Positions 6,886 through 27,152 of a stretch of DNA of 64,000 nucleotides are shown piece after piece (positions within the stretch are counted from its first letter, which is position 1; each line of letters opens with the position of its first letter). The notes under the pieces are model-generated. The model was not told the DNA's origin. It saw only the letters and a program-made list of their open reading frames with translations, and did not search any database. The stretch is from the NCBI RefSeq assembly GCF_056746865.1, contig NZ_CM163382.1; one strand, written 5' to 3'. Made by a program: the position numbers and the translations under genes.

Positions 6886-7620
6886 ATGTCCAAACTCGAT
6901 CTAAACGCCCTGAACGAACTGCCGAAGGTAGATCGCATTCTGGCGCTGGCAGAAACTAACGCCGAACTGGAAAAACTGGACGCTGAAGGCCGCGTTGCCT
7001 GGGCGCTGGATAATCTGCCCGGTGAATATGTACTTTCTTCCAGTTTCGGCATTCAGGCGGCGGTGAGCCTGCATCTGGTGAATCAGATTCGCCCGGATAT
7101 TCCAGTGATCCTCACCGATACGGGTTACTTGTTCCCGGAAACCTACCGCTTTATTGACGAGTTAACGGACAAACTCAAACTCAACCTGAAAGTGTACCGT
7201 GCTACCGAAAGCGCAGCCTGGCAGGAAGCACGCTACGGTAAACTATGGGAGCAGGGCGTTGAAGGCATTGAAAAGTACAATGACATCAACAAAGTCGAAC
7301 CGATGAACCGGGCGCTGAAAGAACTGAATGCGCAAACGTGGTTTGCTGGCCTGCGCCGCGAACAATCCGGCAGTCGCGCCAATTTACCGGTGCTGGCAAT
7401 TCAGCGTGGCGTATTTAAAGTGCTGCCGATTATCGACTGGGATAACCGAACGATATATCAGTATCTGCAAAAACATGGCCTGAAATATCACCCATTATGG
7501 GATGAAGGATATTTATCGGTCGGTGATACCCATACAACCCGTAAATGGGAACCCGGCATGGCGGAAGAAGAAACGCGTTTCTTTGGCTTAAAAAGAGAAT
7601 GTGGGTTACACGAAGGGTAA
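6886..7620 (+). CDS. cysH: Phosphoadenosine phosphosulfate (PAPS) reductase
   Basis: ORF 6733..7620; start at [15 protein letters not shown] gives 244 aa with the C-terminal ECGLH motif of PAPS reductases. Confidence 0.95.
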
Positions 7621-7637
7621 ATATTGCCGGATAAATT

Positions 7638-7676
7638 AAACGCCTCTGTCAGAAATGATGGGGGCGTTTTTATTTT
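7638..7676 (+). terminator. Probable intrinsic terminator after cysH
   Basis: Stem aacgcc...ggcgtt followed by a T-run (ggcgtttttatttt) about 20 bp after the cysH stop. Confidence 0.4.
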
Positions 7677-7883
7677 GCGAGCAGCATTCCTGATTTTAAA
7701 CGTGAACGCCGCTGGAAGAATTATCAGGTATAGAATGGCGTTGGGTGCTTGAGGCTGTCTGGCGTTAAGCATTCGCGAGGTTCCAGATGGACAAAAGCCC
7801 CAGGCGATATTTCTATCAACCTGAGGCCAGCGTTCGAACCTAAGCAATTCGAATGTTAGTCTCTTCTTTGCAGGGAGGCAAGA

Positions 7884-8036
7884 CATGCTGACAAAATATG
7901 CCCTTGTGGCAATCATCGTACTGTGTTGTACAGTACTGGGATTCACGCTGATGGTAGGCGACTCGTTGTGTGAGTTGAGTATCAGAGAACGTGGTATGGA
8001 GTTTAAGGCAGTTCTCGCTTACGAATCGAAGAAGTA
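7884..8036 (+). CDS. hokX: Hok/Gef-family small membrane toxin (type I toxin-antitoxin locus)
   Basis: 50 aa ORF ([50 protein letters not shown]) with a hydrophobic N-terminus and conserved Cys, typical of Hok proteins; SD ggagg 6 nt upstream. Absent from the ORF track because it is under 60 aa. Confidence 0.6.
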
Positions 8037-8058
8037 GCCACCACGCGGGGGTAAAACC

Positions 8059-9397
8059 CATAAGCGCTAACTTAAGGGTTGTGGTATTACGCCTGATATG
8101 ATTTAACGTGCCGATGAATTACTCTCACGATAACTGGTCAGCAATTCTGGCCCATATTGGTAAGCCCGAAGAACTGGATACTTCGGCACGTAATGCCGGG
8201 GCTCTAACCCGCCGCCGCGAAATTCGTGATGCTGCAACTCTGCTACGTCTGGGGCTGGCTTACGGCCCCGGGGGGATGTCATTACGTGAAGTCACTGCAT
8301 GGGCTCAGCTCCATGACGTTGCAACATTATCTGACGTGGCTCTCCTGAAGCGGCTGCGGAATGCCGCCGACTGGTTTGGCATACTTGCCGCACAAACACT
8401 TGCTGTACGCGCCGCAGTTACGGGTTGTACAAGCGGAAAGAGATTGCGTCTTGTCGATGGAACAGCAATCAGTGCGCCCGGGGGCGGCAGCGCTGAATGG
8501 CGACTACATATGGGATATGATCCTCATACCTGTCAGTTCACTGATTTTGAGCTAACCGACAGCAGAGACGCTGAACGGCTGGACCGATTTGCGCAAACGG
8601 CAGACGAGATACGCATTGCTGACCGGGGATTCGGTTCGCGTCCCGAATGTATCCGCTCACTTGCTTTTGGAGAAGCTGATTATATCGTCCGGGTTCACTG
8701 GCGAGGATTGCGCTGGTTAACTGCAGAAGGAATGCGCTTTGACATGATGGGTTTTCTGCGCGGGCTGGATTGCGGTAAGAACGGTGAAACCACTGTAATG
8801 ATAGGCAATTCAGGTAATAAAAAAGCCGGAGCTCCTTTTCCGGCACGTCTCATTGCCGTATCACTTCCTCCCGAAAAAGCATTAATCAGTAAAACCCGAC
8901 TGCTCAGCGAGAATCGTCGAAAAGGACGAGTAGTTCAGGCGGAAACGCTGGAAGCAGCGGGCCATGTGCTATTGCTAACATCATTACCGGAAGATGAATA
9001 TTCAGCAGAGCAAGTGGCTGATTGTTACCGTCTGCGATGGCAAATTGAACTGGCTTTTAAGCGGCTCAAAAGTTTGCTGCACCTGGATGCTTTGCGTGCA
9101 AAGGAACCTGAACTCGCGAAAGCGTGGATATTTGCTAATCTACTCGCCGCATTTTTAATTGACGACATAATCCAGCCATCGCTGGATTTCCCCCCCAGAA
9201 GTGCCGGATCCGAAAAGAAGAACTAACTCGTTGTGGAGAATAACAAAAATGGTCATCTGGAGCTTACAGGTGGCCATTCGTGGGACAGTATCCCTGACAG
9301 CCTACAAAACGCAATTGAAGAACGCGAGGCATCGTCTTAACGAGGCACCGAGGCGTCGCATTCTTCAGATGGTTCAACCCTTAAGTTAGCGCTTATG
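8059..9397 (+). mobile_element. IS186 (IS4 family) insertion sequence
   Basis: 23-bp terminal inverted repeats cataagcgctaacttaagggttg (8059-8081) and its reverse complement (9375-9397), flanked by duplicated ggggtaaaacc; total 1339 bp. Confidence 0.8.
8108..9226 (+). CDS. insL: IS186 transposase
   Basis: 372 aa ORF filling the space between the inverted repeats; recognised as the IS186/IS4-family DDE transposase from memory. Confidence 0.85.
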   Translation: MPMNYSHDNWSAILAHIGKPEELDTSARNAGALTRRREIRDAATLLRLGLAYGPGGMSLREVTAWAQLHDVATLSDVALLKRLRNAADWFGILAAQTLAVRAAVTGCTSGKRLRLVDGTAISAPGGGSAEWRLHMGYDPHTCQFTDFELTDSRDAERLDRFAQTADEIRIADRGFGSRPECIRSLAFGEADYIVRVHWRGLRWLTAEGMRFDMMGFLRGLDCGKNGETTVMIGNSGNKKAGAPFPARLIAVSLPPEKALISKTRLLSENRRKGRVVQAETLEAAGHVLLLTSLPEDEYSAEQVADCYRLRWQIELAFKRLKSLLHLDALRAKEPELAKAWIFANLLAAFLIDDIIQPSLDFPPRSAGSEKKN

Positions 9398-9419
9398 GGG
9401 TAAAACCCCGCGTATTGAA

Positions 9420-9580
9420 TTGTGATGGTTTGGTCTCCTGCACCCTTTTTTAATTTATATTGTTTATGTGAATATTATGCCTATGTTTATTATTCATATA
9501 TATTACTGATGAAAATTATTTGATTATTCATAATGTAAATATTTTATTGGACGATATATATCACAGATAATTTTTAATAT
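9420..9580 (+). promoter_or_regulatory. Extremely AT-rich cas3 upstream region (likely H-NS-silenced promoter)
   Basis: About 160 bp of more than 80% A+T immediately upstream of cas3; cas promoters in E. coli are known H-NS targets. Confidence 0.35.
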
Positions 9581-12280
9581 ATGCGTAAATATCCTTTAAG
9601 TTTACTGAAGGATAAAAATATTGTGACTTTTTTTGATTTCTGGGGAAAAACCCGACGCGGCGAGAAAGACGGGGGCGACGACTATCACCTTCTTTGCTGG
9701 CATTCGCTGGATGTAGCCGCGATGGGCTATTTAATGGTTAAAAGCAATTGCTTCGGACTGGCTGACTATTTTCGTCAATTAGAGATTTCTGACAAGGAAC
9801 AGGCGGCTCAATTTTTCGCCTGGTTGTTGTGCTGGCACGATACTGGTAAATTTGCCCGCTCATTTCAGCAACTTTACCTGCACCCGAAACTCAGGGTTCC
9901 GGAAGGTGCTAGAAAAAATTACGAAAAAATCTCTCATTCAACGCTGGGCTACTGGTTGTGGCATCATTATTTAAGTGAATGTCAGGAGTTACTTCCTTCC
10001 TCTTCACTCTCTCCCCGCAAACTTACACGTGTAATAGCGATGTGGATGCCCATAACTACCGGGCATCATGGTCGCCCGCCTGACCGTATTGATGAACTGG
10101 ATAATTTTCTGCCTGAAGACAAAGCTGCCGCGCGAGATTTTCTTCTTGAAATCAAACCACTGTTTCCGCTCATAGAGATCCCCGCATTCTGGGATGATGA
10201 TGAGGGCATTGAACTTATAAAACACCTTTCCTGGTATATCTCTGCAACCGTCGTACTCGCAGACTGGACGGGATCGTCAGCGCGGTTTTTTCCACGCGTT
10301 GCACAGGCAATGGATATTAAAGATTACTGGCAGAAGGCTTTAGTTCAGGCTCAAAACGCCTTAACCGTCTTTCCTCCAAAAGCACAAACCGCGCCTTTCA
10401 CCGGAATTAATACGCTGTTTCCTTTTATTGAGAATCCGACACCGTTACAGCAAAAGGTGCTGGATCTGGATATCAGCCAGCCAGGGCCACAGTTATTTAT
10501 TCTGGAAGATGTGACTGGCGCAGGTAAAACGGAAGCGGCGCTTATCCTGGCGCACAGGTTGATGGCTGCGGGTAAAGCGCAGGGTTTGTTTTTTGGCCTG
10601 CCAACAATGGCAACGGCCAATGCCATGTACGATCGACTGGTCAAAACCTGGCTTGCTTTCTATTCGCCAGAGTCCCGCCCCAGCCTGGTGCTGGCACACA
10701 GTGCCCGAACATTAATGGACCGCTTTAATGAATCACTCTGGTCCGGTGATTTAGTCGGGTCAGAAGAACCGGATGAACAAACGTTCAGTCAGGGATGTGC
10801 GGCCTGGTTTGCCGACAGTAACAAGAAGGCGCTACTGGCTGAAATTGGCGTCGGCACGCTGGATCAGGCGATGATGGCTGTGATGCCGTTCAAACATAAT
10901 AATCTGCGGCTTCTGGGACTGAGTAACAAAATCCTGCTGGCTGATGAGATCCATGCCTGTGACGCTTACATGTCATGCATTCTTGAAGGGCTGATCGAGC
11001 GGCAGGCGCGTGGCGGAAACAGCGTCATTTTGCTTTCTGCCACGTTATCTCAACAGCAGTGCGACAAACTCGTTGCTGCCTTTGCGCGTGGTACAGAGGG
11101 CCAGCAAGAAGCTCCGTTCCTGGAAAAGGATGATTACCCCTGGCTGACGCACGTTACGAAATCCGATGTGCATTCACACCGGGTAGCGACGCGCAAAGAC
11201 GTTGAGCGTAGCGTGAGCGTGGGTTGGCTTCATAGCGAACAAGAATGTATTGCGCGTATCGAATCGGCAGTAAGTCAGGGGAAATGCATCGCCTGGATCC
11301 GGAATTCTGTCGATGACGCTATTAAGGTTTATCGTCAGTTGCTTGCCCGCGGCGTCATTCCTGCTTCCAGCCTTTCTCTGTTTCATAGCCGCTTTGCTTT
11401 TAGCGATCGCCAGCGAATTGAAACGGAAACGCTGGCACGCTTCGGTAAAGAAGATAGCTCACAGCGTGCCGGAAAAGTCCTCATTTGTACTCAGGTCTTA
11501 GAGTCGAGCGTTGATTGCGATATGGACGAAATGATTTCCGACCTGGCCCCTGTTGATTTGCTGATCCAGCGAGCGGGGCGATTACAGCGGCATATCCGCG
11601 ATATTAATGGTCAGTTAAAGCGTGACGGAAAAGACGAGCGTTCCCCTCCTGAATTGCTGATTCTGGCCCCCGTCTGGGACGACGCTCCAGGTGACGAATG
11701 GTTCGGCAGTGCCATGCGTAACAGTGCATATGTCTATCCCGATCATGGACGAATCTGGCTGACGCAGCGTGTACTGCGTGAGCAAGGCGCTATTCAAATG
11801 CCACACGCAGCCCGCCTTCTTATTGAATCAGTCTACGGTGAGGACGTGGTAATGCCGGAAGGATTTGCCCGCAGCGAGCAGGAGCAAGTGGGCAAATATT
11901 ACTGCGATCGCGCAATGGCTAAAAAGTTTGTGCTGAACTTCAGGCCTGGCTATGCCGCCAATATCAACGATTACCTTCCGGAAAAGCTGTCGACACGTCT
12001 GGCGGAGGAGTCTGTTTCCCTGTGGCTGGCTACCTGTATTGCCAGTGTGGTGAAGCCTTATGCCAACGGTGCTCACGCATGGGAAATGAGCGTTGTCAGA
12101 GTGCGTCGAAGCTGGTGGAAAAAACATCGGGATGAGTTTTCTTTACTGGAAGGGGAAGCGTTCAGGCAGTGGTGCATTGAACAGCGGAAAGATCCGGAGA
12201 TGGCAAACGTGATTTTAGTTACCGATGACGAAAGTTGCGGGTATTCGGCTATGGAAGGATTGACTGGCAAGGTTGGTTGA
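9581..12280 (+). CDS. cas3: CRISPR-associated nuclease/helicase Cas3 (type I)
   Basis: 899 aa ORF with an N-terminal HD domain (HSLDVAAM...HDTGKF), helicase Walker A (DVTGAGKTEA) and a DExH box (LLADEIH). Confidence 0.9.
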   Translation: MRKYPLSLLKDKNIVTFFDFWGKTRRGEKDGGDDYHLLCWHSLDVAAMGYLMVKSNCFGLADYFRQLEISDKEQAAQFFAWLLCWHDTGKFARSFQQLYLHPKLRVPEGARKNYEKISHSTLGYWLWHHYLSECQELLPSSSLSPRKLTRVIAMWMPITTGHHGRPPDRIDELDNFLPEDKAAARDFLLEIKPLFPLIEIPAFWDDDEGIELIKHLSWYISATVVLADWTGSSARFFPRVAQAMDIKDYWQKALVQAQNALTVFPPKAQTAPFTGINTLFPFIENPTPLQQKVLDLDISQPGPQLFILEDVTGAGKTEAALILAHRLMAAGKAQGLFFGLPTMATANAMYDRLVKTWLAFYSPESRPSLVLAHSARTLMDRFNESLWSGDLVGSEEPDEQTFSQGCAAWFADSNKKALLAEIGVGTLDQAMMAVMPFKHNNLRLLGLSNKILLADEIHACDAYMSCILEGLIERQARGGNSVILLSATLSQQQCDKLVAAFARGTEGQQEAPFLEKDDYPWLTHVTKSDVHSHRVATRKDVERSVSVGWLHSEQECIARIESAVSQGKCIAWIRNSVDDAIKVYRQLLARGVIPASSLSLFHSRFAFSDRQRIETETLARFGKEDSSQRAGKVLICTQVLESSVDCDMDEMISDLAPVDLLIQRAGRLQRHIRDINGQLKRDGKDERSPPELLILAPVWDDAPGDEWFGSAMRNSAYVYPDHGRIWLTQRVLREQGAIQMPHAARLLIESVYGEDVVMPEGFARSEQEQVGKYYCDRAMAKKFVLNFRPGYAANINDYLPEKLSTRLAEESVSLWLATCIASVVKPYANGAHAWEMSVVRVRRSWWKKHRDEFSLLEGEAFRQWCIEQRKDPEMANVILVTDDESCGYSAMEGLTGKVG

Positions 12281-15553: not shown

Positions 15554-15628
15554 ATGAGCCAATATTTGATTTTTCAGCTTCATGGGCCAATGGCATCCTG
15601 GGGCGTCGATGCCCCGGCGAAGGGAACA
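15554..15628 (+). pseudogene. cas5: 5' fragment of cas5 (casD); coding similarity ends after about 25 codons
   Basis: Translation MSQYLIFQLHGPMASWGVDAPAKG matches the Cas5e N-terminus (MxxYLIxxLxGPMxxWG), but the remainder (TIQHHTRPVIARILRVLKSILYTFLYTF...) is non-Cas-like and runs into repeats. No cas6e/cas1/cas2 follow. Confidence 0.6.
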
Positions 15629-15685
15629 ATACAACATCACACAAGGCCAGTAATAGCGCGAATCCTGCGAGTTCTAAAATCAATT

Positions 15686-15709
15686 CTATACACATTTCTA
15701 TACACATTT
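15686..15709. repeat. 12-bp tandem direct repeat (tctatacacatt x2) at the element's left end
   Basis: Exact tandem duplication read directly from the sequence. Confidence 0.4.
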
Positions 15710-16113
15710 ATCCCTCGCTTGAGGGTTATGCGTCATCGTTATCGGCTATCTCGCTGGTGGATGATCACGGATGGCCTGATATCTACAGCCGCCTTAAAAA
15801 GCTGTACCCGACAAGCATTACTGCGTATCGGGTTCGTTCGCTCTTTCTACTCGTGGCAGATGAGTTTATCGGTGTGATTTTATCGGGCGAGGGTATTGTA
15901 TCAGGCATCCCCTTTTCTATGCAGATTTGCATAGTTCCGAATGGTGGCGTTATGGAAGCCTCCCATATCAGCATCATGCCCACCAGCGTGAAGTATTTTT
16001 TTATTTCGCGGGTGTAAAAATTTGACGAGGCGGGCGGTCCCATAAGCAATGGATTGTAGGGATTTCGCTCCCCCCCTCCTGAATGCAATTTTTCGTATAT
16101 ATATACAAAACAG

Positions 16114-16269
16114 TGCGGGTTATGCGGGTTACCGGGTTATCTTAGTATGCTAACTATTTTTTGTTCTTTAGTATCAATATGTTGCAAAATACACTGTTCA
16201 TTATTCAAGCATCACATAACCCGCAAAACATCCCAAATAACCCGCAAACGCCCCAAAATAACCCGCAAA
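16114..16269. repeat. Iteron cluster A (crr-like cis replication region)
   Basis: Three direct copies gcgggtta(t/c) at 16114-16140, an AT-rich spacer of about 75 bp, then three inverted copies ataacccgcaaa at 16216, 16237 and 16258 (21-bp spacing). Confidence 0.6.
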
Positions 16270-16876
16270 CACATTGCTGAAAGCAGGGGTTGATAGTTCC
16301 ACTGGTGCCACAGAACGGCTGAATACGGTAACTGTTGCTGGTGGTCTGTCCTGTTGTCGTTCCAGTCTCATCAAATTGAGAGGCAAGACAAAGTGCATTT
16401 TTGCACTATAGCCAAAGCCTCATAAAACAGAGTTACCCCCACAGGCTGGCAAACCATTACCCAACGCAATTAAGTGCGTCAGAATCGATTACAGCGCGTT
16501 CCTGTGGCACGTTGTTGCCGTTCTCAGCAGTGAAAGGAGAGAGTGAAAAGCGCATATCTATTACTGTTGAGGGGTGTAGCGGCATATATCGCGAATATCC
16601 ACGCCCTTAATCCCGATACCGTCACGGCGCATTGAGATCCACCAGAAGATTAAGATAGTTTTTACCTGAAATTATCCAAATAATTGTTTTAACTGATTAA
16701 TTTTTCGAATATCTATTGTTAGGGAATAAATCATCAGATACACCATAAAACGACATCTTTCAGGGTGTAGAAGATGCAAAGCCGGTACTGAAGAAAAGAC
16801 AAAGAATATGAATGGCTGGCCACACGATGGAAGGATTGTCCATTGAAGGATAAATCCCCGTGGTACAAGTTTTGGT

Positions 16877-16900
16877 AAGCCCGCAGCGCGGGCTTTTTTG
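16877..16900 (+). terminator. Intrinsic terminator (aagcccgc-agc-gcgggctt + T6)
   Basis: Perfect GC-rich hairpin followed by tttttt; ends a roughly 250 bp region without a convincing ORF. Confidence 0.5.
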
Positions 16901-16971
16901 TGGACGAAACAAAAGTCAGTGCTACATTCATTGACGCCACATCGAGGTGGCTTATAGATGGAAATTTCACA

Positions 16972-17133
16972 ATGAAAAAAGCATTTGCTGCACTGTTCGT
17001 TTTGTTGTCTCTGGTAGCTTCAACTCAGGCCTTTGCCGGTCGTTGTCAGCACGACAGCGATACTGCCGCTGACGGCTCCCGCTGCGGTGGGCGTTCTGCG
17101 GATTCCCGCCCGGGCGGCGGTGGCATTCGTTAA
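16972..17133 (+). CDS. Small secreted Gly/Arg-rich protein (hypothetical)
   Basis: 53 aa: MKKAFAALFVLLSLVASTQAFA signal peptide followed by a Gly/Arg/Cys-rich tail; the internal start of the 16900..17133 ORF is preferred because of the signal peptide. Confidence 0.35.
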   Translation: MKKAFAALFVLLSLVASTQAFAGRCQHDSDTAADGSRCGGRSADSRPGGGGIR

Positions 17134-17138
17134 AAACA

Positions 17139-17160
17139 AGGCCGCGAAAGCGGCCTGTTT
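17139..17160. terminator. Bidirectional intrinsic terminator between convergent genes
   Basis: Hairpin aggccgc-gaaa-gcggcct with A/T-rich flanks on both sides, between the 16972..17133 (+) and 17163..18014 (-) genes. Confidence 0.5.
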
Positions 17161-17162
17161 GA

Positions 17163-18014
17163 TCACTGTGCAGTTTTCGCTGATCGATTTTCAGCTCTAA
17201 ATTCAAGAACCGTTTCAATATTTCTTTCCTTCAGCATATCAATAACATTTTTATTCATTTGACTATCACTGGTTAATAACTGGTAAACGTTGCTTCTCTC
17301 TTTATCAGAATTTTCTTTAACAGCTGCTTTGCATGCCAAATGCTTATTGAAATTTTCTACATCGCTAGTACAGGAATTTACGGCTGCTGATGAAATATCA
17401 GACGCTGAAGAAACACCATCATCCAAACGTTTTATAGCATTTTCTATACATGAGTTAAGGGAATAAACGACAACTGAGCGATACCCTTCAGACGCACACC
17501 ATTCTAAATTTCTTGAAGGATCGAGTGGTTTTACTTCGCTGGATTGAATTAACTTGTCAAAAACTGACTTATATTCAATCTGTTTTTTATCTATAGCCCA
17601 TACTTCAGTAGCTGATTTATAATTCCCCGTATGCCTATTAACATCAAATCCATGTTTTATAAGCAAATCTGCCCATGAAAGATTTATTGATTCATTGTTA
17701 TGAGGCCATTTTCCTGTCAGAACCGCCCCCATAGACCCCATATATCCGCCATATGATGGTATAGCACCATGGCTCAGTAACTTCTCAGCAACCACAGGGC
17801 AATTAATTACATAAGAGGCGTAAAGCCCATTCCATAAAGCCCCTCTATAGTAATCGCCACGATTAGGTTCTTTTAAGTCGATAGCCTTTGATAATTGTTC
17901 ACACGTTTTGCATGCATCAAAGTTATCCTTATTGCATTGCAATGAACTGGCGGCTGTAGGATTTACAGAGACTATTGAAAGCACTATGCCAAAAAACAAA
18001 TTTATTTTTTTCAT
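17163..18014 (-). CDS. Secreted Cys-rich protein of unknown function (third gene of cargo operon)
   Basis: 283 aa; N-terminal signal peptide MKKINLFFGIVLSIVSVNPTAAS, multiple Cys pairs, possible ankyrin-like helical repeats (weak); start lies 1 nt after the stop of the 1129 aa gene. Confidence 0.7.
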   Translation of the reverse strand: MKKINLFFGIVLSIVSVNPTAASSLQCNKDNFDACKTCEQLSKAIDLKEPNRGDYYRGALWNGLYASYVINCPVVAEKLLSHGAIPSYGGYMGSMGAVLTGKWPHNNESINLSWADLLIKHGFDVNRHTGNYKSATEVWAIDKKQIEYKSVFDKLIQSSEVKPLDPSRNLEWCASEGYRSVVVYSLNSCIENAIKRLDDGVSSASDISSAAVNSCTSDVENFNKHLACKAAVKENSDKERSNVYQLLTSDSQMNKNVIDMLKERNIETVLEFRAENRSAKTAQ

Positions 18015-18015
18015 C

Positions 18016-21000
18016 CTATTTCATCTGCTCTTCAACTTTATTTAGTAATGGTGATATCGCCCACAGATTCTGAAAAGGTAGCATTTTACGGACAGCGTGG
18101 GTTTGCTGGCTGTCAAATTCTCCGTTAAGTACACCATTTGCAACCGTCGCGGCATCACCGCCAAGATCAAAGGTAGGACCAAGTAAAGCACCAATAGCAT
18201 TACGACTCTGAAACCTTGATACCGGAGGCGCACCAAACATCGCGCCAAGACCAAACCTACCGCCGCTTATGTTCTCAACGGTATTCAGCGGCTCAGAGAG
18301 CCAGCCAAGCATTCCGCCCCGGTCGATCCCCTCTTTCACAAGGTTATTCCAGCTGTAGTCGATATCGCGACCGCTTAACTTCTGTTTCATCATATAGACC
18401 ATTGAGCCAAGCGCAATCGTGCCAAGCGCACCAAGATAGAATGAAGCATCGCCCTGCTGGATACCAGATACCAACACCCTGTTATGCTGTGCGAAGATAA
18501 ACGTTTTGAACTGCGTGATCATCTTCCAGCCTTCTTTACTAAAAAACAGCGGTGTATCACCTACGCCAGGCGTTACAATCACTGAGTCTACATCTTTCAG
18601 CACTGCAGACTGGAAAATCTCTCTAGCGAAACGGTCATCCCACAGATGACTATGCCCGGTTAACAGCCCGTCCATATCCTCTCCGTGCTTCCCGAATTGC
18701 TCCCCGATTCGGCGCAGAACATCTTCATTGATGCCGACCTGTGCCATCTTCCGCATTTCACTTTTGGCGAGCGTGCCACCAGCAGAAACCTGGCGAGCCG
18801 CGTCAAGTATCCTCGACTGCACTATCATCCCGGACCATGATTTAAGTGCGCTGTTCCACTGATTCATCAGCGTCCAGTTACCGAATTTCTGCGTCATCCA
18901 GTTCAGGCCTCGCTCAGCGGCGCTTCTCCGGCTATAGGGGTCAGTAAGATCCGCTATAGCCTTTGTACGCGTAGACAGGACATAATCAAGCCCAACGGCC
19001 ATTTCTCGCAAATCCCTGGTTGCAATTTTCACTGAGTCCATATTTTTAAGCATGCTTACCATTGGTCCGAGAGATTTTCTCAGGCCATGCTGCATCATCG
19101 GTCGCATCAGATCAGTTGCAGCGGAGACGGTCATTCCACCAAGCAAACGGAGGAAGTTAATATTCCTAGCAACTCGCCCGGCACGAACAAAGAAACTGCG
19201 TGGATCTTGAGGTGCGCCGTAAGTACCAAGCAGTCGGTCACGCATAGCCGTAATATCCCTAATATCAGCCTCCCGTTGCTTCTCAAGAGCTGCACGTCGT
19301 TTAGGTGTTTTAGCCTCTTTTATTAGCCGGGTATATTCCTCACTAACCTGACGGATTTGCTCCCCCATATCTTTACGGCCAAACTGCGCAGTCAGCTCAA
19401 TTTCTGGTGCCACCTGCCGGAGATAACTTTCCATGATGTAGTTAACATCTGATTCAAGAAAATCTTCTATACGCTCATCAGGAATAAGCAGCGTTCGGCT
19501 TTTAGTGAAACCAGCCCGACCAACGAGTCTCTCTGGGATAATATCGGCTGGTACAAGCCCGGAAGGTGCGCCTATTATTTTATTCACGATCTCGTCAGCA
19601 GCGTCCTCTGCTTCCTCTCGGGATAGAGGCTCCATCTGCTTCAGTGCTCGCTCGCGGCTTGCATTCAGCCTTGTGGTTGAATTTGCCCGTTTTTGCAGTC
19701 GGCGAAGCTCAGAACGATATTTCCGTGGATTATCCAGCAACTCCATATGGCGCTGATAGACAGGAAGCTCACTCTTTGCCTGCGCTATATCATCAAGGCG
19801 TGTTTTAAGGTCAGAGCTTTCTTTCATCATTCTTGCCTGAAGTTTTTCTGATGAAGTCTCGGCCAACTCTTTTTCTATTCTTGTAAGACGCGCCTGTGTG
19901 TCAGTCTCCTGAGATATAAGCTTATTTCGTTTATCCAGTTCTTCCATGAGTAGAATTTTTTTACCAGACCATTTCTCCGCTTCAGCGATTTCACTAGCGA
20001 GAGCATCAGCGCGCGGTGCCGATTCCTCTGCAGTTTTTAGCAATGAATTTATCCTTTCAATTCGCTGACCTGCTTTGTCAGCACCTTTGGCACTAATCCC
20101 TTGTATCCAGTTGGCAATTCGCCCTCTGAATTCAGTGCGGTCGGAAAGTATCTTATCGAACTTATAAATGCGGGGAAGATAACTTTTCGCCGTCACGACA
20201 TCGATATCCTCAGGAAGGATCCCCAGTTCCTGCATACGGGCTTTTGTGGTCTCGAAAATGGGGCGGATTCTGGCGGCTGCTTGTGAAACCTCAGGAATAT
20301 CACTCTGATCACCACGGCGCATAGCCATGCCAACAGCTTCATTGAAATCAATAAAGCTCATCCTCTTCACGCCGCGGGCGCTGACAGATTTGCTGTACTG
20401 CTGGTAAGCATCACGAGTGGCTTCCATCTGCTTATAAAGCATGGCGTCGTATTGCTTAATCTTAGTCTCGACTGCCGTAAACGTAGCCAACCCCTCATCA
20501 TTTTTGGCGAAGAAATAGTTATTTTCGGCAAGCTGCTGGTTAATCTGACGGGAGACAAGAGATGGTGATTGCGCCAAGCGGCCAGCAGGAGTGACACTCA
20601 ACGTTTTGTTAGCAAGTCCAAGTCCAGCGAGCTGTTCCTGATCGAGTGTGGTATTGAAAACCTGAGCTGCACCAATGCTTTGAGGAGAATCCATACCTCG
20701 CAAATGATTACCTACTGAGTTAACCACTGCCTCGCGCGCGCTAGGTCCAGCAAGTAGCTGTGCACCAGCACCAAGGATCCCACCAACGAGAGCATCAACA
20801 ACAACGTTCGATACGCTCTCCATCGGTGAGCGAGCTTCCTGAGTGGCCTGCAATGCGGCCTCTGAAGCAACACTGCCAGCAGCATTGGCTAAAGCAAAAC
20901 GTCCGGCTGTTTCTGCAATACGACCGCCACGAACGACAGCGCCGAACGGAATAAACATAGAAATCGCATTGAATGGATCTGCTAATCTCATTGCTACAGA

Positions 21001-21405
21001 AGAGACTGTACCAGCAAATCCCAAGCCTGAATTGTATTCCATGTCAGCTCTCTGCTGATCGATTCGATGTTTAATTGCCATTGTTTCTTCAGGCGAACCG
21101 GAGTTGATAAACGAATCTGCAAAATCTTCATAGCCTTTAATATCTGCTGCATCGTTATCAAATGGGTTATATCCTTCAATCCTGTCAAACTGACTGAAAG
21201 GAGCACTGGCAATAAAGCTACCCAGCGTGTTATCTATACGAAATGCTGCTTGTCTAGACCTTTGAACGCGTTGATCACTGGTAAATGGGTTCACAGCAGA
21301 AAGCAAAGAAGGTGTTTCCATATAGAAATTACTGTCATCAGGTGCTGCTATTTGCTGAATATCCTCGCCAAGCAACTCTTTAGGATCCTGTTCATATATC
21401 GGCAT
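18016..21405 (-). CDS. Very large protein of unknown function (1129 aa; second gene of cargo operon)
   Basis: Long uninterrupted ORF; small-residue-rich hydrophobic segments (GAGAQLLAG, GALGTIALGSMVYMM, GLGAMFGAPP), long coiled-coil-like Glu/Lys/Arg/Gln-rich stretches, no P-loop or HExxH motif. Start codon overlaps the stop of the upstream 915 aa gene (TAATG). Confidence 0.75.
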   Translation of the reverse strand: MPIYEQDPKELLGEDIQQIAAPDDSNFYMETPSLLSAVNPFTSDQRVQRSRQAAFRIDNTLGSFIASAPFSQFDRIEGYNPFDNDAADIKGYEDFADSFINSGSPEETMAIKHRIDQQRADMEYNSGLGFAGTVSSVAMRLADPFNAISMFIPFGAVVRGGRIAETAGRFALANAAGSVASEAALQATQEARSPMESVSNVVVDALVGGILGAGAQLLAGPSAREAVVNSVGNHLRGMDSPQSIGAAQVFNTTLDQEQLAGLGLANKTLSVTPAGRLAQSPSLVSRQINQQLAENNYFFAKNDEGLATFTAVETKIKQYDAMLYKQMEATRDAYQQYSKSVSARGVKRMSFIDFNEAVGMAMRRGDQSDIPEVSQAAARIRPIFETTKARMQELGILPEDIDVVTAKSYLPRIYKFDKILSDRTEFRGRIANWIQGISAKGADKAGQRIERINSLLKTAEESAPRADALASEIAEAEKWSGKKILLMEELDKRNKLISQETDTQARLTRIEKELAETSSEKLQARMMKESSDLKTRLDDIAQAKSELPVYQRHMELLDNPRKYRSELRRLQKRANSTTRLNASRERALKQMEPLSREEAEDAADEIVNKIIGAPSGLVPADIIPERLVGRAGFTKSRTLLIPDERIEDFLESDVNYIMESYLRQVAPEIELTAQFGRKDMGEQIRQVSEEYTRLIKEAKTPKRRAALEKQREADIRDITAMRDRLLGTYGAPQDPRSFFVRAGRVARNINFLRLLGGMTVSAATDLMRPMMQHGLRKSLGPMVSMLKNMDSVKIATRDLREMAVGLDYVLSTRTKAIADLTDPYSRRSAAERGLNWMTQKFGNWTLMNQWNSALKSWSGMIVQSRILDAARQVSAGGTLAKSEMRKMAQVGINEDVLRRIGEQFGKHGEDMDGLLTGHSHLWDDRFAREIFQSAVLKDVDSVIVTPGVGDTPLFFSKEGWKMITQFKTFIFAQHNRVLVSGIQQGDASFYLGALGTIALGSMVYMMKQKLSGRDIDYSWNNLVKEGIDRGGMLGWLSEPLNTVENISGGRFGLGAMFGAPPVSRFQSRNAIGALLGPTFDLGGDAATVANGVLNGEFDSQQTHAVRKMLPFQNLWAISPLLNKVEEQMK

Positions 21406-24152
21406 TATTTGCCCCCTGCGTATATATTGCTCGGAAGGTAATTGGCTGAACCATAACCGAATGGTTTGGTCAGATCTGGAGGAGTATATCCATCTTTATT
21501 GCTGAACTGCGGCAGCGGATTGCCTTCTCTCCGCACTCTAGCCTCATCAACACGCTGTTGCTGGAACTGAATGGTTTGCCTGTACATTGGAGATGTCAGC
21601 TGATCCGGCTTGAAACGAACAGGGAGACCATTTTCTCCAATATAATTTCTCGGTTCTATCGCTCCGTTTGCGTCAGGCTGTAAAACCATAACAGCATAAC
21701 TCCTATCCCTTGCCGTAAGGCCATCAGAAACAAGTATTAAGTCCGTATCACTGCGAGGACCGCCAAAGGATTTTGATTTAAGCTCGCGTTTTTCCTGCTC
21801 CCACTGCCCCTGTATCCAGTTACCAGCACCATTATTTACTCCGTACAATGCCTCAGGTGCATACTTCATAACCTCTGCTTTGCCATTAACCGTAGAAACT
21901 CCCCAGGTGGTTCTGATCATGGCATTGGTCATTTTCTCAGCCTGTTCTGCATCGCCACCTGTCTGTACAAAGTTAGCATCGTAAATTGTCTGGTAATCTC
22001 GCTGATAGGCCGCATTTGATTTTCCTGGATCGGTAATATCCGGAGACCACGAACCAAAGGAAGTCAGACTGCTGGCGTTATTTTGTGCAGCAGTTACCCT
22101 CGCCGCGACATATTTTTTGTCTCGCATGGCAGTGGAAAGCATCTGTTTCATTCGGTCATCCTGTTGGAACACCTGACTGTAAGCCATATCAACAGCCTTA
22201 TCCTCCGGCACGCCAGCGCGGGAATAATCGTAAACCTTGCCATAAAATGCCATCGTACTTTTATCAAGTGTTGCCGCTGCCGCCGGATTATTATCGAATA
22301 ACTGACCGTAGAATTTTGCCATCGGGACAACCAGCGCAGGATCTCTTGATGTTGCTCCACTGTTAAGCATTGTTTTAACCTGAGTTGGTATCATGCCGCT
22401 TTTAGTTGTGACGGTGACCAGTGTATTGATGCTCTGCGGATCAGATATGGAAAACGAAGGCGCGATATCCTGCGCGAAATAACGGTCTACCGCTGCCTGA
22501 TTGTTTTTGTCGTTCGGGTCCAGCGGGAAGTTATTTTGCATTGAAGACACGAACCTGTTTCTTCCCTGCTGAATCTCCCACTCCCTATCCATCTCTTTAA
22601 ATTTGGCCTGCATTTTCTCCCAGCGTTGCTGGTTAGCAGCAAATCCAGGAGCATTTGGATCCTGTGGACGTAAACGTTCAAGAATGTCTTGTCGTCCTTC
22701 TGGAGTGAGGTCTTTAGCGGCACCAATGACACCTCCATATTGTATCTGCGCCTGCATATCCTTCCACTTCATAGCGCCAATGCGCGGACCATTGGCCCGG
22801 ATAAAATCGTCCTCAGAAGGTAACTTCTCAGGTTTCAATCCTTCATCAAGGGCTGAATATGCATCTTTAACTACGGTGCTAAGCTGGTCCGCATACTGCT
22901 GGCGGTACTGATTTCTCAGCTCATTAGCCTGCCTCAATGCCTGTATTTGCATTTGAGGGCTCATAGCATCAAATGCCGCATTGCCCGTATAACGCTTAGG
23001 TGAATCAAGGTTAGTTAGACCAAGGGCTGCCGAGATACCAGTTTCAAGCTGTTCGGTGCTATAAGGCATACTGCCATTTTCGTGTTTAATAATCCCAGCA
23101 CATAAAGCAGCTAGTGTCTTTGGGTTAGAGATATCAAGCTGATCATTCTCCCCAACACCAAGCTCACCACACAATGCCCTAATATAAGCATCAGTATTAT
23201 TACCATCACTAGCCGGAGCATAGCGATTAACAATCTCGCTAACGGTGTCATAGCCTTGACGCTGGTAAGACAACATATTTTTACCCAACGCGCGGATTCC
23301 ATGCTCAGGGGTAGCAAACGTTGCAAAACGTCCATCGCTACCGATCTGACCTTCCCACGGGTTAGATTTGCTCGCTTCAATATTACCAGGGTTATTATTA
23401 CGTAAACCACGAGCATCCAATGAATTACCATGTGATATTGCACGACTCACACCATCAAGATCCCCTGGCTCTCCATTAACCTGAAGAAACTCGTTGTATT
23501 TTTGAGCGATATTTCCTATCCATGCTTGCTGCCCCATTTGTTCCTTGAGCTGAGTTTTCTGCTGAACACGCCACTCATCAGGAAGCCCATGCGCATCAGC
23601 GTATTGATCAATAGATTCAAATCGCTGCTTGGCTAAATCGACAAATGCTTGGTTATAGCTATATAGCCCCGCAGACTGAGTGACAGCCAATGCATTTCCT
23701 GACAAATACGTTTGATCTTGGAATTGCTGAAACTGCCCAACTTCATATCGACGTGCCTGATTGTAATAAGACTGCATAGACTGCTGGAGTTGAAAGGATA
23801 ATTTATTCCTTTCCTCACTTTCAGGGATTGAGCCTAATAATGCCTGAGCCCTTTCCTGCATATTTTTCATAACAGCGTCACTCTGACCAAGAGCGTTTTT
23901 ACCCTGTTTAGAAATCAGCCCATTTTCAGGGTTGTTAATCTGGTCATCTGCAAATTGGTTAAATTGCAGTAACGCCTCCTGGGCCATAGCAACATTCGCT
24001 TTCTGCCTGGCTTCACCATATGCCACCGCATACTGATCTGCGACATTCGCCAGCACCTGACCTGCTTGAGGAACATCGAAGGTCTGAAAACCACCGGTTT
24101 GCACACCACGACTTTGCACCTGGCGTCCGGATGTAGTAGGAACAACAAGCAT
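21405..24152 (-). CDS. Very large protein of unknown function (915 aa; first large gene of cargo operon)
   Basis: Long ORF preceded by strong SD (AGGAGGT 6 nt upstream); Gln/Ala-rich helical protein with a central block RNNNPGNIEASKSNPWEGQIGSDGRFATFATPEHGIRALGKNMLSYQ that looks like a conserved domain I cannot assign. Confidence 0.75.
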   Translation of the reverse strand: MLVVPTTSGRQVQSRGVQTGGFQTFDVPQAGQVLANVADQYAVAYGEARQKANVAMAQEALLQFNQFADDQINNPENGLISKQGKNALGQSDAVMKNMQERAQALLGSIPESEERNKLSFQLQQSMQSYYNQARRYEVGQFQQFQDQTYLSGNALAVTQSAGLYSYNQAFVDLAKQRFESIDQYADAHGLPDEWRVQQKTQLKEQMGQQAWIGNIAQKYNEFLQVNGEPGDLDGVSRAISHGNSLDARGLRNNNPGNIEASKSNPWEGQIGSDGRFATFATPEHGIRALGKNMLSYQRQGYDTVSEIVNRYAPASDGNNTDAYIRALCGELGVGENDQLDISNPKTLAALCAGIIKHENGSMPYSTEQLETGISAALGLTNLDSPKRYTGNAAFDAMSPQMQIQALRQANELRNQYRQQYADQLSTVVKDAYSALDEGLKPEKLPSEDDFIRANGPRIGAMKWKDMQAQIQYGGVIGAAKDLTPEGRQDILERLRPQDPNAPGFAANQQRWEKMQAKFKEMDREWEIQQGRNRFVSSMQNNFPLDPNDKNNQAAVDRYFAQDIAPSFSISDPQSINTLVTVTTKSGMIPTQVKTMLNSGATSRDPALVVPMAKFYGQLFDNNPAAAATLDKSTMAFYGKVYDYSRAGVPEDKAVDMAYSQVFQQDDRMKQMLSTAMRDKKYVAARVTAAQNNASSLTSFGSWSPDITDPGKSNAAYQRDYQTIYDANFVQTGGDAEQAEKMTNAMIRTTWGVSTVNGKAEVMKYAPEALYGVNNGAGNWIQGQWEQEKRELKSKSFGGPRSDTDLILVSDGLTARDRSYAVMVLQPDANGAIEPRNYIGENGLPVRFKPDQLTSPMYRQTIQFQQQRVDEARVRREGNPLPQFSNKDGYTPPDLTKPFGYGSANYLPSNIYAGGK

Positions 24153-24248
24153 CAGTAACCTCCTATTTTGAATCGGGAGTCAGAATTCATAAAACCTGAG
24201 TTAGATAACATTGGCGTCCCTCTGCTTTGATGCTGTACCAGCGATTCA

Positions 24249-24455
24249 TTACTCACCCCCCGATGCAAAACCATTCTGATTAAGCCAGGCGTTTACGGCA
24301 TGTCTGACAATCTGCGCCACGCCTGGTAATGGCTGATCAGGGTGATTGTTCACATGGTCGATTCTGTACTGCTTAAGGCGCATCACGGTCTGTGCATCCA
24401 GATGAACGGAACCACCTCTGACATCGCCTGTGTTCAGGTCGTTAATACAATTCAC
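24249..24455 (-). CDS. Small protein (68 aa), possible DNA-binding/leader gene upstream of cargo operon
   Basis: ORF with SD (agagga) upstream and the same strand as the operon; not otherwise supported. Confidence 0.4.
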   Translation of the reverse strand: MNCINDLNTGDVRGGSVHLDAQTVMRLKQYRIDHVNNHPDQPLPGVAQIVRHAVNAWLNQNGFASGGE

Positions 24456-24555
24456 AGCAATTTCCTCTTACTGACTAAACTATGCACATTATTGATCTGA
24501 AAAAGTGGTAGATAAACATATTTCTATCACAAAAACAGATTAATTGATTTCAGCC

Positions 24556-24580
24556 AAAAAAAAGCCGGATTGCTCCGGCT
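24556..24580 (-). terminator. Intrinsic terminator on minus strand (agccggagcaatccggct + T8)
   Basis: Hairpin followed by eight T on the minus strand, placed between the IS200/IS605 element and the cargo operon. Confidence 0.45.
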
Positions 24581-24785
24581 CTGTGCTTACTTCTGGTAGT
24601 TACGCCATACTGATTTCCCGATCCCATCTATCCCCATTTCTTTTTCAGTGCGTTTAAGCGACCGTTTCAGGTCTTCTAAATTATCCGGTTGCTTCGGTGG
24701 CCTCTGTGCCTTCCTGGAACATTCCAGTCGTCGCATTGATATTTGACATCCTCCACGCCCTGAAGGACGTGGATTCCTGCTACGT

Positions 24786-25994
24786 TCAGGCTGTCGCCTG
24801 AATCATTTCGGTGGGTTCCTGCTTCAACGGGCGGCCTGACTGCACCATCCCTCCACAGGCAAGAACGGCGTGCCCCGCCGCTAAAATGTTACGAGCGCCG
24901 TTTACATCGGCGTTCGCTGTATATCCACATACCTGGCATCTGAATTGACTTTGTGACAGGCGATTTTCTTTCGCTGTATGACCACAGCACGCGCAACGCT
25001 GGCTTGTGTACGCTGGCGGAACAGCAAGCACCTGACCGCCACACCAGAGCTGCTTGTACTCAAGCTGACGGCGCATTTCATACCAGCCCTGATCCAGTAT
25101 CGAACGGTTTAAACCTGATTTTGCCCGGACATTGCGCCCCGGCTGGCTGACCGTACCCGAGGCTGACTTTGACATGTTGCTGACCTTCAAATCCTCAATG
25201 ACTATCATTGCGTGGTTTTTGCTGATGGTCGTTGTGACTTTGTGAAGGTAGTCCCTGCGGATATTTGCGATACGGGAATGCAGTCGCTGTATTTTGCGTT
25301 TCTGCTTCTGCCAGTTGTTGCTGAATTTAACCTTGCGGCTTAACTGGCGCTGAAGTCTCGCCAGCTTCTTCTGGTTTTTATGAAAACTGTTTACAGGCTC
25401 AAAGACCGTGCCATCTGACAGCGTGGCGAGTTTAGCCACGCCAGCATCCAGCCCGACCATTAATGCTGAAGGGTGAACCGGAGTTGATACTTCACTTTCT
25501 GTCTGAATACTGATGTACCACTTACCGCAGGACTGGCTGACAGTGACATTTTTCACAACACCCGTGACCTGACGGCTGTTCCGGTAGCGCATCCAGCCCA
25601 GTTTCGGCAGAAAAATACGGCTGTTTTCCTGATCGAGCTTAACACCCTGCGGATAGCGGAATGCATCATGCTGTCCCCGCTTTTTGAATCGGGGAAAAGC
25701 GGCACGCTTCTGAAAGAAATTTTTGTAGGCTCGCTCAAGGTCTTTCAGTGACTGCTGCAATGGCTGTGAGGGAGAATCTTTAAGCCATTGCGTTTCAGTA
25801 GCATTTTTCCATTCAACCAGCCAGGAAGTCATCTTTGCATAAGAAATATATTTGTTCCCGGCCTCATGATTCTCATTCTGAAGCGCCAGAGCACGATTGA
25901 AAACGAAACGACATGCGCCCGCGAAGCGCCTCATTTCACGCTCCTGTTTTCCATTTGGTCTTAACTGGAATTTGAAAGCTTGTAGTCGTTTCAT
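24786..25994 (-). CDS. tnpB: TnpB (OrfB) RNA-guided nuclease-like protein of IS200/IS605 family
   Basis: 402 aa with a C-terminal zinc finger (CACCGH...CQVCGY) and RuvC-III-like motif (DVNGARNI). Confidence 0.85.
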
Positions 25995-26016
25995 ATGCCA
26001 AATTATACTTTGGCCT

Positions 26017-26433
26017 ATGAAAAAAGAAACCGATATCCGACGTGGAAGGCACTGTGTCTTCCTGATGCACGTTCACCTGGTCTTTGTTACCAAGTACCGA
26101 CGCCAGATTTTTGACCATGACGCAATAGAAAAACTACGCACTTACTTTTCAAGTGTATGTGCTGATTTTGAAGCTGAACTGGTTGAAATGGATGGAGAAC
26201 GAGATCACGTTCACCTGCTAATTAACTATCCTCCCAAATTGGCGATATCCACCCTGGTGAACAGTCTCAAGGGCGTATCGAGTAGATTATTGCGACGAGA
26301 TCGACCAGATATTGCAGTCAGGTATTACTACAAAGGCGTTTTATGGAGTCCCAGCTATTTTGCCAGTAGCTGCGGAGGTGCGCCAATATCCATCATCCGC
26401 CAATACATTGAACAACAGCAAACACCTAGTTAG
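26017..26433 (+). CDS. tnpA: IS200/IS605 Y1 (HUH) transposase TnpA
   Basis: Internal start MKKETDIRRG of ORF 25897..26433; HUH motif HVHLVF and the catalytic-Tyr region YYYKGVLWSPSYFASSCGG. Confidence 0.85.
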   Translation: MKKETDIRRGRHCVFLMHVHLVFVTKYRRQIFDHDAIEKLRTYFSSVCADFEAELVEMDGERDHVHLLINYPPKLAISTLVNSLKGVSSRLLRRDRPDIAVRYYYKGVLWSPSYFASSCGGAPISIIRQYIEQQQTPS

Positions 26434-26516
26434 GTGGAAAACCGCGCCTTATATCCCCGACCTGAAGGACGGGGCTTTACGGCGCACTGGGTAATTACTC
26501 TGTTCGCTGTTGTGAA

Positions 26517-26942
26517 TTAAAACGGTATCCCGTCCCCGTACGGATCATCGTGCTGGCCTGTCTGTTGCTTTGCCCTGTTCAGTGCATCAGTAGCCTGCCC
26601 CTGCTGGCCTTTTTTGCCGCCCGGTCGCGCCGTTCGCGCACTGATTACGCTGTCTGCGATAACCTGCCATCCCTGCCTCGTTTCGCCGTTCTGGCCCGTC
26701 CACCAGCTCACCTGCATGTTACCGGCCACGCTCACCAGTTCGCCTTTGTGGTGTTTTGCCAGTGCGTCAGCCTGTCTGCCAAACGCCAGGACGGATAACC
26801 ACATCGTCGCCGTTCCGTCATCTGTCTGATTGCATGGAAGGGGGACCGCCATACTCGCCATCGCCATTTGTGTGCCCTTGCTGGTGGTCTTTAACTGCGG
26901 GTCAGCCACCAGCCGCCCGTAAGCTGATATTTGCGCCGTCAT
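26517..26942 (-). CDS. ssb: Single-stranded DNA-binding protein
   Basis: 141 aa OB-fold-like protein with a Gly/Gln-rich tail ending in the acidic tip DDPYGDGIPF (SSB C-terminal D..IPF signature). Confidence 0.85.
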   Translation of the reverse strand: MTAQISAYGRLVADPQLKTTSKGTQMAMASMAVPLPCNQTDDGTATMWLSVLAFGRQADALAKHHKGELVSVAGNMQVSWWTGQNGETRQGWQVIADSVISARTARPGGKKGQQGQATDALNRAKQQTGQHDDPYGDGIPF

Positions 26943-27002
26943 GCTGTTTGTTCTCCGGTTTTAACGTGATAGTTACGCTTGTTTACACTCTTACAGTGAA
27001 AT

Positions 27003-27130
27003 TTTGCGGGTTACAATCGCACATTTGCGGGTTATAACTGCCGTTTTGCGGGTTACGTGCGGGTTATTAATTTCCTTTTTAATCATTCAGTTAATTAACT
27101 TATGCACAGGATAACCCGCATAACCCGCAA
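27003..27130. repeat. Iteron cluster B (candidate replication origin next to primase gene)
   Basis: Four direct copies (t)gcgggtta at 27003-27067, an AT-rich spacer, then two inverted copies ataacccgca at 27111-27129; same 9-mer as cluster A. Confidence 0.6.
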
Positions 27131-27152
27131 CTTTTTACCTCACACAGGGAAG

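Follow-up and report, generated by a model that had tools for sequence, protein, structure and literature searches.

In the analyzed stretch of 64,000 nucleotides of an E. coli chromosome (the window), the element lying between hokX and cas3 is the E. coli insertion sequence IS186, in an ordinary copy that has been described before. It is very probably a standard insertion into the stem-loop following the hokX open reading frame (ORF), with the targeting and the consequences for hokX proposed below. In the window, cysJ, cysI, cysH (ending at 7620), a Hok-family ORF, a transposase ORF and cas3 follow each other in this order, all on the + strand. The stop codon of hokX is separated from IS186 by 21 nt, and IS186 from the ATG of cas3 by 183 nt, in agreement with the distance of about 180 bp upstream of cas3 given in a preceding sequence-only reading of this DNA. 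That reading had placed the insertion at 8041-9413, a span covering the element as well as both palindrome arms. Coordinates of all features are summarized in Table 1.

Table 1. Features of the hokX-IS186-cas3 region in window coordinates.
Feature	Position	Strand	Remarks
hokX mRNA 5' leader	7743-7900	+	7743-7756 is the 5'-terminal element pairing with the 3' fold-back sequence; Rfam RF01794
Homologue of K-12 sokX antisense RNA	7787-7845	-	K-12 sokX annotated at 2887353-2887411; mapped by hand, 2-3 mismatches
hokX ORF	7885-8037	+	50 aa, intact; Pfam HOK_GEF 39.1 bits (cut-off 22)
Split hairpin, left half	8043-8058	+	5' stem arm ACGCGGGG (8043-8050), loop, left duplication copy GGGTAAAACC (8049-8058)
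IS186	8059-9397	+	1,339 bp; IRL 8059-8081 (+), IRR 9375-9397 (-); transposase 8114-9226 (ORF from GTG 8108)
Split hairpin, right half	9398-9413	+	right duplication copy (9398-9407), 3' stem arm CCCCGCGT (9406-9413)
hokX locus 3' tail, displaced	9414-9452	+	9415-9423 pairs with leader 7844-7852; fold-back partner 9432-9445; T-run 9446-9451
AT-rich region	9453-9580	+	16.4% GC, directly 5' of cas3 and still contiguous with it
cas3	9581-12280	+	899 aa; non-K-12 'E1' I-E variant (naming after passages of PMC3903273)

The identification of the element as IS186, already proposed from the sequence, was confirmed by its ends, its transposase and its near-identity to the K-12 copies. The 23-nt terminal repeat CATAAGCGCTAACTTAAGGGTTG was observed in two exact copies in the 64-kb window, one on each strand, with an expectation of 0 from shuffled sequences; the terminal inverted repeats are thus perfect over 23 bp (0 mismatches). 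The transposase ORF (8108/8114-9226) matched the NCBIfam IS4 model NF033592 with 133.2 bits (cut-off 115) and Pfam DDE_Tnp_1 with 93.7 bits (cut-off 23), representing an IS4-type DDE transposase, and is labelled 'IS4-like element IS421 family transposase' (WP_001300563.1) by PGAP. In full-length comparisons with the K-12 copies IS186A, B and C and with the copy of E. coli B, the window copy differed by a single synonymous nucleotide at window position 8836. At this position of the transposase gene the window carries a T, and a C was found in the K-12 A, B and C, E. coli B, WP8-S18, O104:H4 and 1070/13 copies. Among the IS186 copies examined, the T is private to the window genome, and the position was therefore rejected as a marker for independent insertions.

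An exact direct repeat of 12 bp, GGGGTAAAACCC, abuts IS186 at 8048-8059 and 9397-9408. Since its outer C and G are part of the canonical 23-bp IS186 ends, the target-site duplication proper comprises 10 bp, GGGTAAAACC, located inside GGGGG-TAAAA-CCCC. The duplicated flank noted previously is accordingly real, but its length had been given as 11 bp, and it measures 10 bp by the canonical ends or 12 bp as a repeated string. Inverted repeats and target duplication both stand on re-inspection. The split palindrome reads ACGCGGGG-GTAAAA-CCCCGCGT, and removal of IS186 together with one duplicate yields the empty site CCACGCGGGGGTAAAACCCCGCGTATTG, featuring an 8-bp stem and a 6-nt loop (-18.4 kcal/mol). 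A 400-nt reconstruction of this empty site was present with 100% identity in real genomes (H31, H32). Hence, comparison with strains free of the insertion and the perfect hairpin rebuilt from the flanks bear out the insertion into a GC-rich palindrome between hokX and cas3 that the sequence-only reading had described.

Regarding the interrupted locus itself, the hokX leader matched Rfam RF01794 (sok) across the full model with 111.7 bits (gathering score 59). The HokX protein is annotated by PGAP as 'Hok/Gef family protein' (WP_000956458.1), is the same in empty-site strains and shares 78% identity with HokE; the NCBIfam HokA and Hok models matched the ORF below cut-off only. Upstream of the locus, a weak match to Rfam ctRNA_p42d (7636-7678; 24.9 bits, gathering score 50) coincides with the cysH terminator hairpin at 7638-7669; almost certainly, this terminator resembles the model by chance. 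In K-12 MG1655 (2887219-2887578, compared with window 7743-7887), leader and sokX are kept, and homology extends precisely to the hokX ATG; from there on, K-12 continues with the upstream region of the K-12-type cas3. Judging from this alignment, K-12 lost the hokX ORF where the K-12-type cas cassette adjoins.

In order to assign a role to the split hairpin, seven hok loci were compared, namely two hokX alleles, hokC, hokE and the loci of an IncF plasmid, a Proteus IncX8 plasmid and a Salmonella IncHI2 plasmid. A hairpin of the form G4+...C4+ begins 8-10 nt past the stop codon in all seven, including those of the E. coli, Proteus and Salmonella plasmids, and the complement of the mRNA 5' end is located 41-50 nt past the stop codon, again in seven of seven. 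The base of the stem co-varies among the paralogues when read by eye (C-G in hokX, G-C in hokC, U-A in hokE). The hairpin split by IS186 corresponds to the stem-loop present after the ORF of each of the seven loci. From work on plasmid R1, the post-ORF hairpin is believed to end and stabilize the 3'-processed, active hok mRNA.

Furthermore, the uninterrupted hokX transcript was rebuilt from 7743-8059 and 9409-9450 (359 nt), its 5' end being placed according to the Rfam sok/hok-leader match. The predicted fold amounts to -128.9 kcal/mol (z = -3.62 versus shuffles). In both the minimum-energy and the centroid structure, 7743-7756 is predicted to pair with 9432-9445, and the palindrome forms its own local hairpin. 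The predicted 5'/3' duplex has an energy of -21.8 kcal/mol, and comparable duplexes were found at the six other hok loci. The two roles suggested earlier for the palindrome, hokX terminator or fold-back element, did not hold. As a fold-back element it was rejected, since it pairs with itself, and the mRNA 5' end has its partner about 20 nt beyond the hairpin in the transcript, downstream of IS186. As an intrinsic terminator it was rejected as well: the tail after the stem, ATTGAATT, contains no U-tract, and a terminator scan of the intact empty-site locus does not flag the hairpin. No local terminator hairpin is visible for hokX, and the exact native 3' end near 9450 is therefore uncertain. 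In strains devoid of the cas-E genes, homology to the window continues up to 9452, which thus marks the end of the hokX unit.

IS186 splits the post-ORF hairpin and moves the fold-back partner together with the 3' end of hokX 1,349 bp away. A search of IS186 for a substitute fold-back partner returned none at up to 3 mismatches. In the hokX ORF, the leader and the sokX region, all of them intact, the window does not differ from empty-site strains, so that no sequence sign of decay after the insertion is apparent. The displaced part comprises the final ~45 nt of the transcription unit of hokX and includes the fold-back sequence that keeps full-length hok mRNA inert. Judging from the predicted structure and the hokC precedent, hokX transcripts would now enter IS186, whose transposase gene is co-oriented, and would do so devoid of the 3' hairpin and the fold-back partner.

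According to a secondary source (PMC3562002), the IS186 copy found downstream of hokC/gef presumably destroys the fold-back element and interferes with normal processing, and that gene is still transcribed and under antisense control. By analogy with the IS186-interrupted hokC/gef of K-12, hokX carrying IS186 is probably still transcribed and Sok-controlled. The same analogy suggests that the interrupted gene would stop accumulating the stable but inactive mRNA on which hok-type killing depends. An altered 3' end of the hokX mRNA, one of the two transcriptional consequences anticipated in the sequence-only reading, is thus well supported as a prediction by the anatomy of the locus and by the hokC/gef precedent (PMC3562002).

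The resemblance to K-12 extends to the insertions themselves. In both hokC and hokE, as in hokX, IS186 parts the ORF from the 3' fold-back sequence; the element differs by 1 nt, the G4-N6-C4 loop is the same, the hairpin starts 9-10 nt past the stop codon, and the duplication comprises 10 bp. Unlike these cases, the paralogue concerned here is hokX, whose ORF is missing from K-12. The K-12 insertions after hokC (gef) and hokE were reportedly described by Pedersen and Gerdes in 1999.

The targets used by the three K-12 copies are GGCGGGG-AGTGAT-CCCCGCC (after hokC), TGCGGGG-AGTAAT-CCCCGCA (after hokE) and GCCGGGG-ATAATT-CCCCGG (nupC terminator). Each copy resides in a hairpin loop and is flanked by a 10-bp GG-N6-CC duplication; the nupC target features a T-run, unlike the hokX hairpin. 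In the window, the hokX hairpin is the sole G4+-N5/6-C4+ motif within 64 kb. The preference of IS186 for GC-rich targets, invoked at the outset, is in line with these sites. A paper by saiSree from 2001 is said to place IS186 at one position of the lon promoter in a G-run/C-run target and to give a consensus formula. Spontaneous landing of IS186 at a single lon-promoter site in either orientation is also reported (PMC3045373). The lon insertions (cited in PMC3045373 and PMC4618355) thus resemble those at hokX in that IS186 enters a G-run/C-run target at one fixed position and in both orientations. They differ in effect: at lon, IS186 cuts the promoter and abolishes expression, whereas at hokX it cuts a 3' untranslated structure of a toxin mRNA. 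Taking these sites together, IS186 selects short palindromic G4-N(about 6)-C4 sites and duplicates 10 bp centred on the loop, the constant duplication length pointing to a staggered cut. Because the hok family carries a G4-N-C4 hairpin 8-10 nt past the stop codon, hok loci represent natural, recurrently used landing pads.

In order to evaluate how often the hokX site is occupied, 5,426 complete E. coli genomes were screened. The region from cysH to hokX was intact up to the hairpin in 4,144 of them. Exact junction counts were obtained with 1,100-nt queries that exclude paralogues; 800-nt queries, for which the flank alone exceeded the 80% threshold, served for the denominator (4,144) only. A first count of 1,381 genomes at a coverage of at least 80% was rejected, since the hokX query also picks up junctions of hokE with IS186, at 89% identity, which inflates the number. 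IS186 was found at the hokX site in the orientation of the window in 170 genomes by the left and likewise 170 by the right junction (3.1% of 5,426), and in the opposite orientation in 592 (10.9%). Within the latter group, 328 genomes keep the cas3-side junction with the same duplication, leaving, by subtraction, 264 in which it is missing. Altogether, the site is occupied in 762 of the 4,144 hokX-bearing genomes (18%) and, by difference, empty in 3,382; an empty site with the cas3 flank of the window type was detected in 2,264 genomes.

A single flank haplotype carries IS186 in both orientations with an identical duplication, as observed for O104:H4 and strain 1070/13, and hokC likewise carries IS186 in both orientations with the same duplication. 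These observations indicate that the hokX site has been filled recurrently. Alternatively, both orientations could descend from a single ancient insertion that was inverted in place by recombination between the 23-bp terminal repeats. The duplication GGGTAAAACC is indeed identical in both orientations and on two flank haplotypes, and the same applies to hokC. However, independent insertions into a symmetrical target likewise leave identical duplications when the stagger is fixed at 10 bp, laboratory cultures spontaneously gain IS186 at one lon-promoter position in either orientation (PMC3045373), and recombination across 23 bp would be expected to be rare. In-place inversion is therefore considered unlikely, and recurrent, independent insertion is the preferred explanation.

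A further question is whether the insertion is kept by selection for disarming the HokX toxin, i.e., adaptive loss of function, beyond the target preference of IS186 alone. A survey of mobile-element insertions lists hok/sok homologues among recurrent hotspots, in the vicinity of which they are enriched, and its authors suggested adaptive disruption (bioRxiv 10.1101/527788). The 18% occupancy of hokX-bearing genomes and the similar receipt of IS186 by the hokC and hokE loci are compatible with this suggestion. On the other hand, G4-N6-C4 sites are also used where no toxin is involved, such as the nupC terminator, a CRISPR spacer and the lon promoter. Moreover, mutational bias would be sufficient, as the hokX hairpin is the only such motif in 64 kb, and the 3,382 hokX-bearing genomes with an empty site also speak against selection. 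A selective contribution is accordingly regarded as possible but doubtful, and target preference remains the favoured account.

Two empty alleles of the post-ORF hairpin were observed. The four-G allele (loop TAAAA) occurs in an APEC strain devoid of cas genes (L005, 3186-3200, compared with window 8047-8059), and the five-G allele (loop GTAAAA) in FORC_029 and O157:H7; each of the six filled sites examined derives from the latter. By its sequence, the five-G allele offers a 6-nt loop and the G4-N6-C4 spacing of the other IS186 targets, and the four-G allele a 5-nt loop. It is a speculative and rather improbable idea that this one-base polymorphism sets the openness of a lineage to IS186 capture and thereby exposes the I-E operon to IS186-mediated loss; as part of the same idea, the hokX promoter might, in the window orientation, also drive the transposase and couple transposition to hok transcription.

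The other consequence anticipated in the earlier reading, an altered transcription of cas3, found no support. IS186 ends 183 bp upstream of cas3 with a co-oriented transposase gene, and no strong terminator-like site was found on the + strand between the two genes. An effect on cas3 could thus be imagined through an outward or hybrid promoter, transposase read-through or blockage of hokX read-through. However, an outward promoter-like site toward cas3 was not found at the right IS186 end, so that the outward or hybrid promoter was rejected. The region of 16% GC directly 5' of cas3 is intact. Furthermore, IS186 precedes an intact cas3 in both orientations (170 genomes in the window orientation versus 328 in the opposite one), which argues against an orientation-dependent selected role. 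In addition, the cas operon of the window is truncated in cas5e, and no CRISPR repeat occurs in the window. Based on the intact AT-rich upstream region, the lack of a promoter-like site at that end and the presence of both orientations before intact cas3, nothing in the sequence points to an effect on cas3, and such an effect is judged very improbable.

Concerning the remainder of the operon, colinearity of the window with strain WP8-S18-ESBL-07 (99.5%) ends at ~15622, 69 nt into cas5e. Beyond this position (15554-16300 onward) the window is unrelated to the remaining cas operon, the CRISPR array, iap and cysD of that strain. The junction at ~15622 was found in none of the 5,426 complete E. 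coli genomes, and neither a CRISPR array nor an I-E CRISPR repeat was detected in the 64-kb window by Tandem Repeats Finder and a repeat search. Since colinearity ends inside cas5e and the window holds no I-E repeat, the I-E system has been disrupted, either by a large piece of foreign DNA or by a rearrangement. The segment at 16216-29279 comprises 21-nt iteron-like repeats (16216-16272), minus-strand ORFs of 283 aa, 1,129 aa (with a weak DUF919 match) and 915 aa that have no family assignment, an IS605 OrfB/TnpB-like ORF (24786-25994) and a DUF927 protein (27153-29279). In content, it resembles an integrative or satellite-type element whose cargo has no assigned role.

The relation between IS186 at hokX and loss of cas genes is illustrated by E. 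coli B (E. coli B-RalR, L003, 6026-7915). In this strain, an oppositely oriented IS186 comes after hokX; its far end adjoins a CRISPR spacer reading GGGGTTTTTCCCC, another IS186-type target, and the entire cas operon, from cas3 through cas2, is absent. At the population level, IS186 at the hokX site provides a substrate from which the cas operon is lost through IS-mediated events, E. coli B being an example. A plasmid of strain ET151 (L011, 1666-3200) carries IS186, with a frameshifted transposase gene, in the post-ORF hairpin of a plasmid hok locus. Its flanks differ, GGATTACTCC being found on the left and GGAGAGATCC on the right; this mismatch suggests recombination between IS186 copies residing in two different hok hairpins.

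Presence of IS186 beside hok/sok and upstream of cas3 is already known and was described in 2014. The relevant passages of Almendros et al. (2014, mBio; PMC3903273) place IS186 at a GC-rich 'IG2-IG3 boundary' beside hok/sok and upstream of cas-E1 (arrangements D-F and G), and invoke a GC-specific preference of IS186 for the same hokX-cas3 locus. According to these passages, recombination between IS copies removes the cas-E1 genes, and GC-rich hot spots guide CRISPR-Cas loss. Locus, element and GC-rich boundary are therefore the same as in the present analysis, and so is the conclusion on IS186 hot spots and cas-E deletion. The structure of E. coli B appears to match arrangement G, the only one without IG3 in those passages, although the text of the paper names neither B nor BL21. 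The passages searched treat the flanks as intergenic blocks and do not tie the site to the hairpin or the fold-back element of a hok mRNA. Among the papers covered by the literature search, none contained both 'IS186' and 'hokX'.

The present analysis contributes the interpretation of 'IG3' as the orphaned hokX 3' end, the corrected length of the duplication and the orientation counts, i.e., new numbers for an old concept, and the importance beyond annotation is little. The insertion accounts for the split appearance of the hokX locus in the window strain, and the stretch of ~45 bp that separates IS186 from the AT-rich region upstream of cas3 represents the orphaned 3' end of the hokX mRNA, not anonymous intergenic DNA. 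For E. coli as a species, population numbers (3% of 5,426 genomes in the window orientation, 11% in the opposite one) are now available for a known hot spot that seeds loss of the I-E cas operon, for example in E. coli B.
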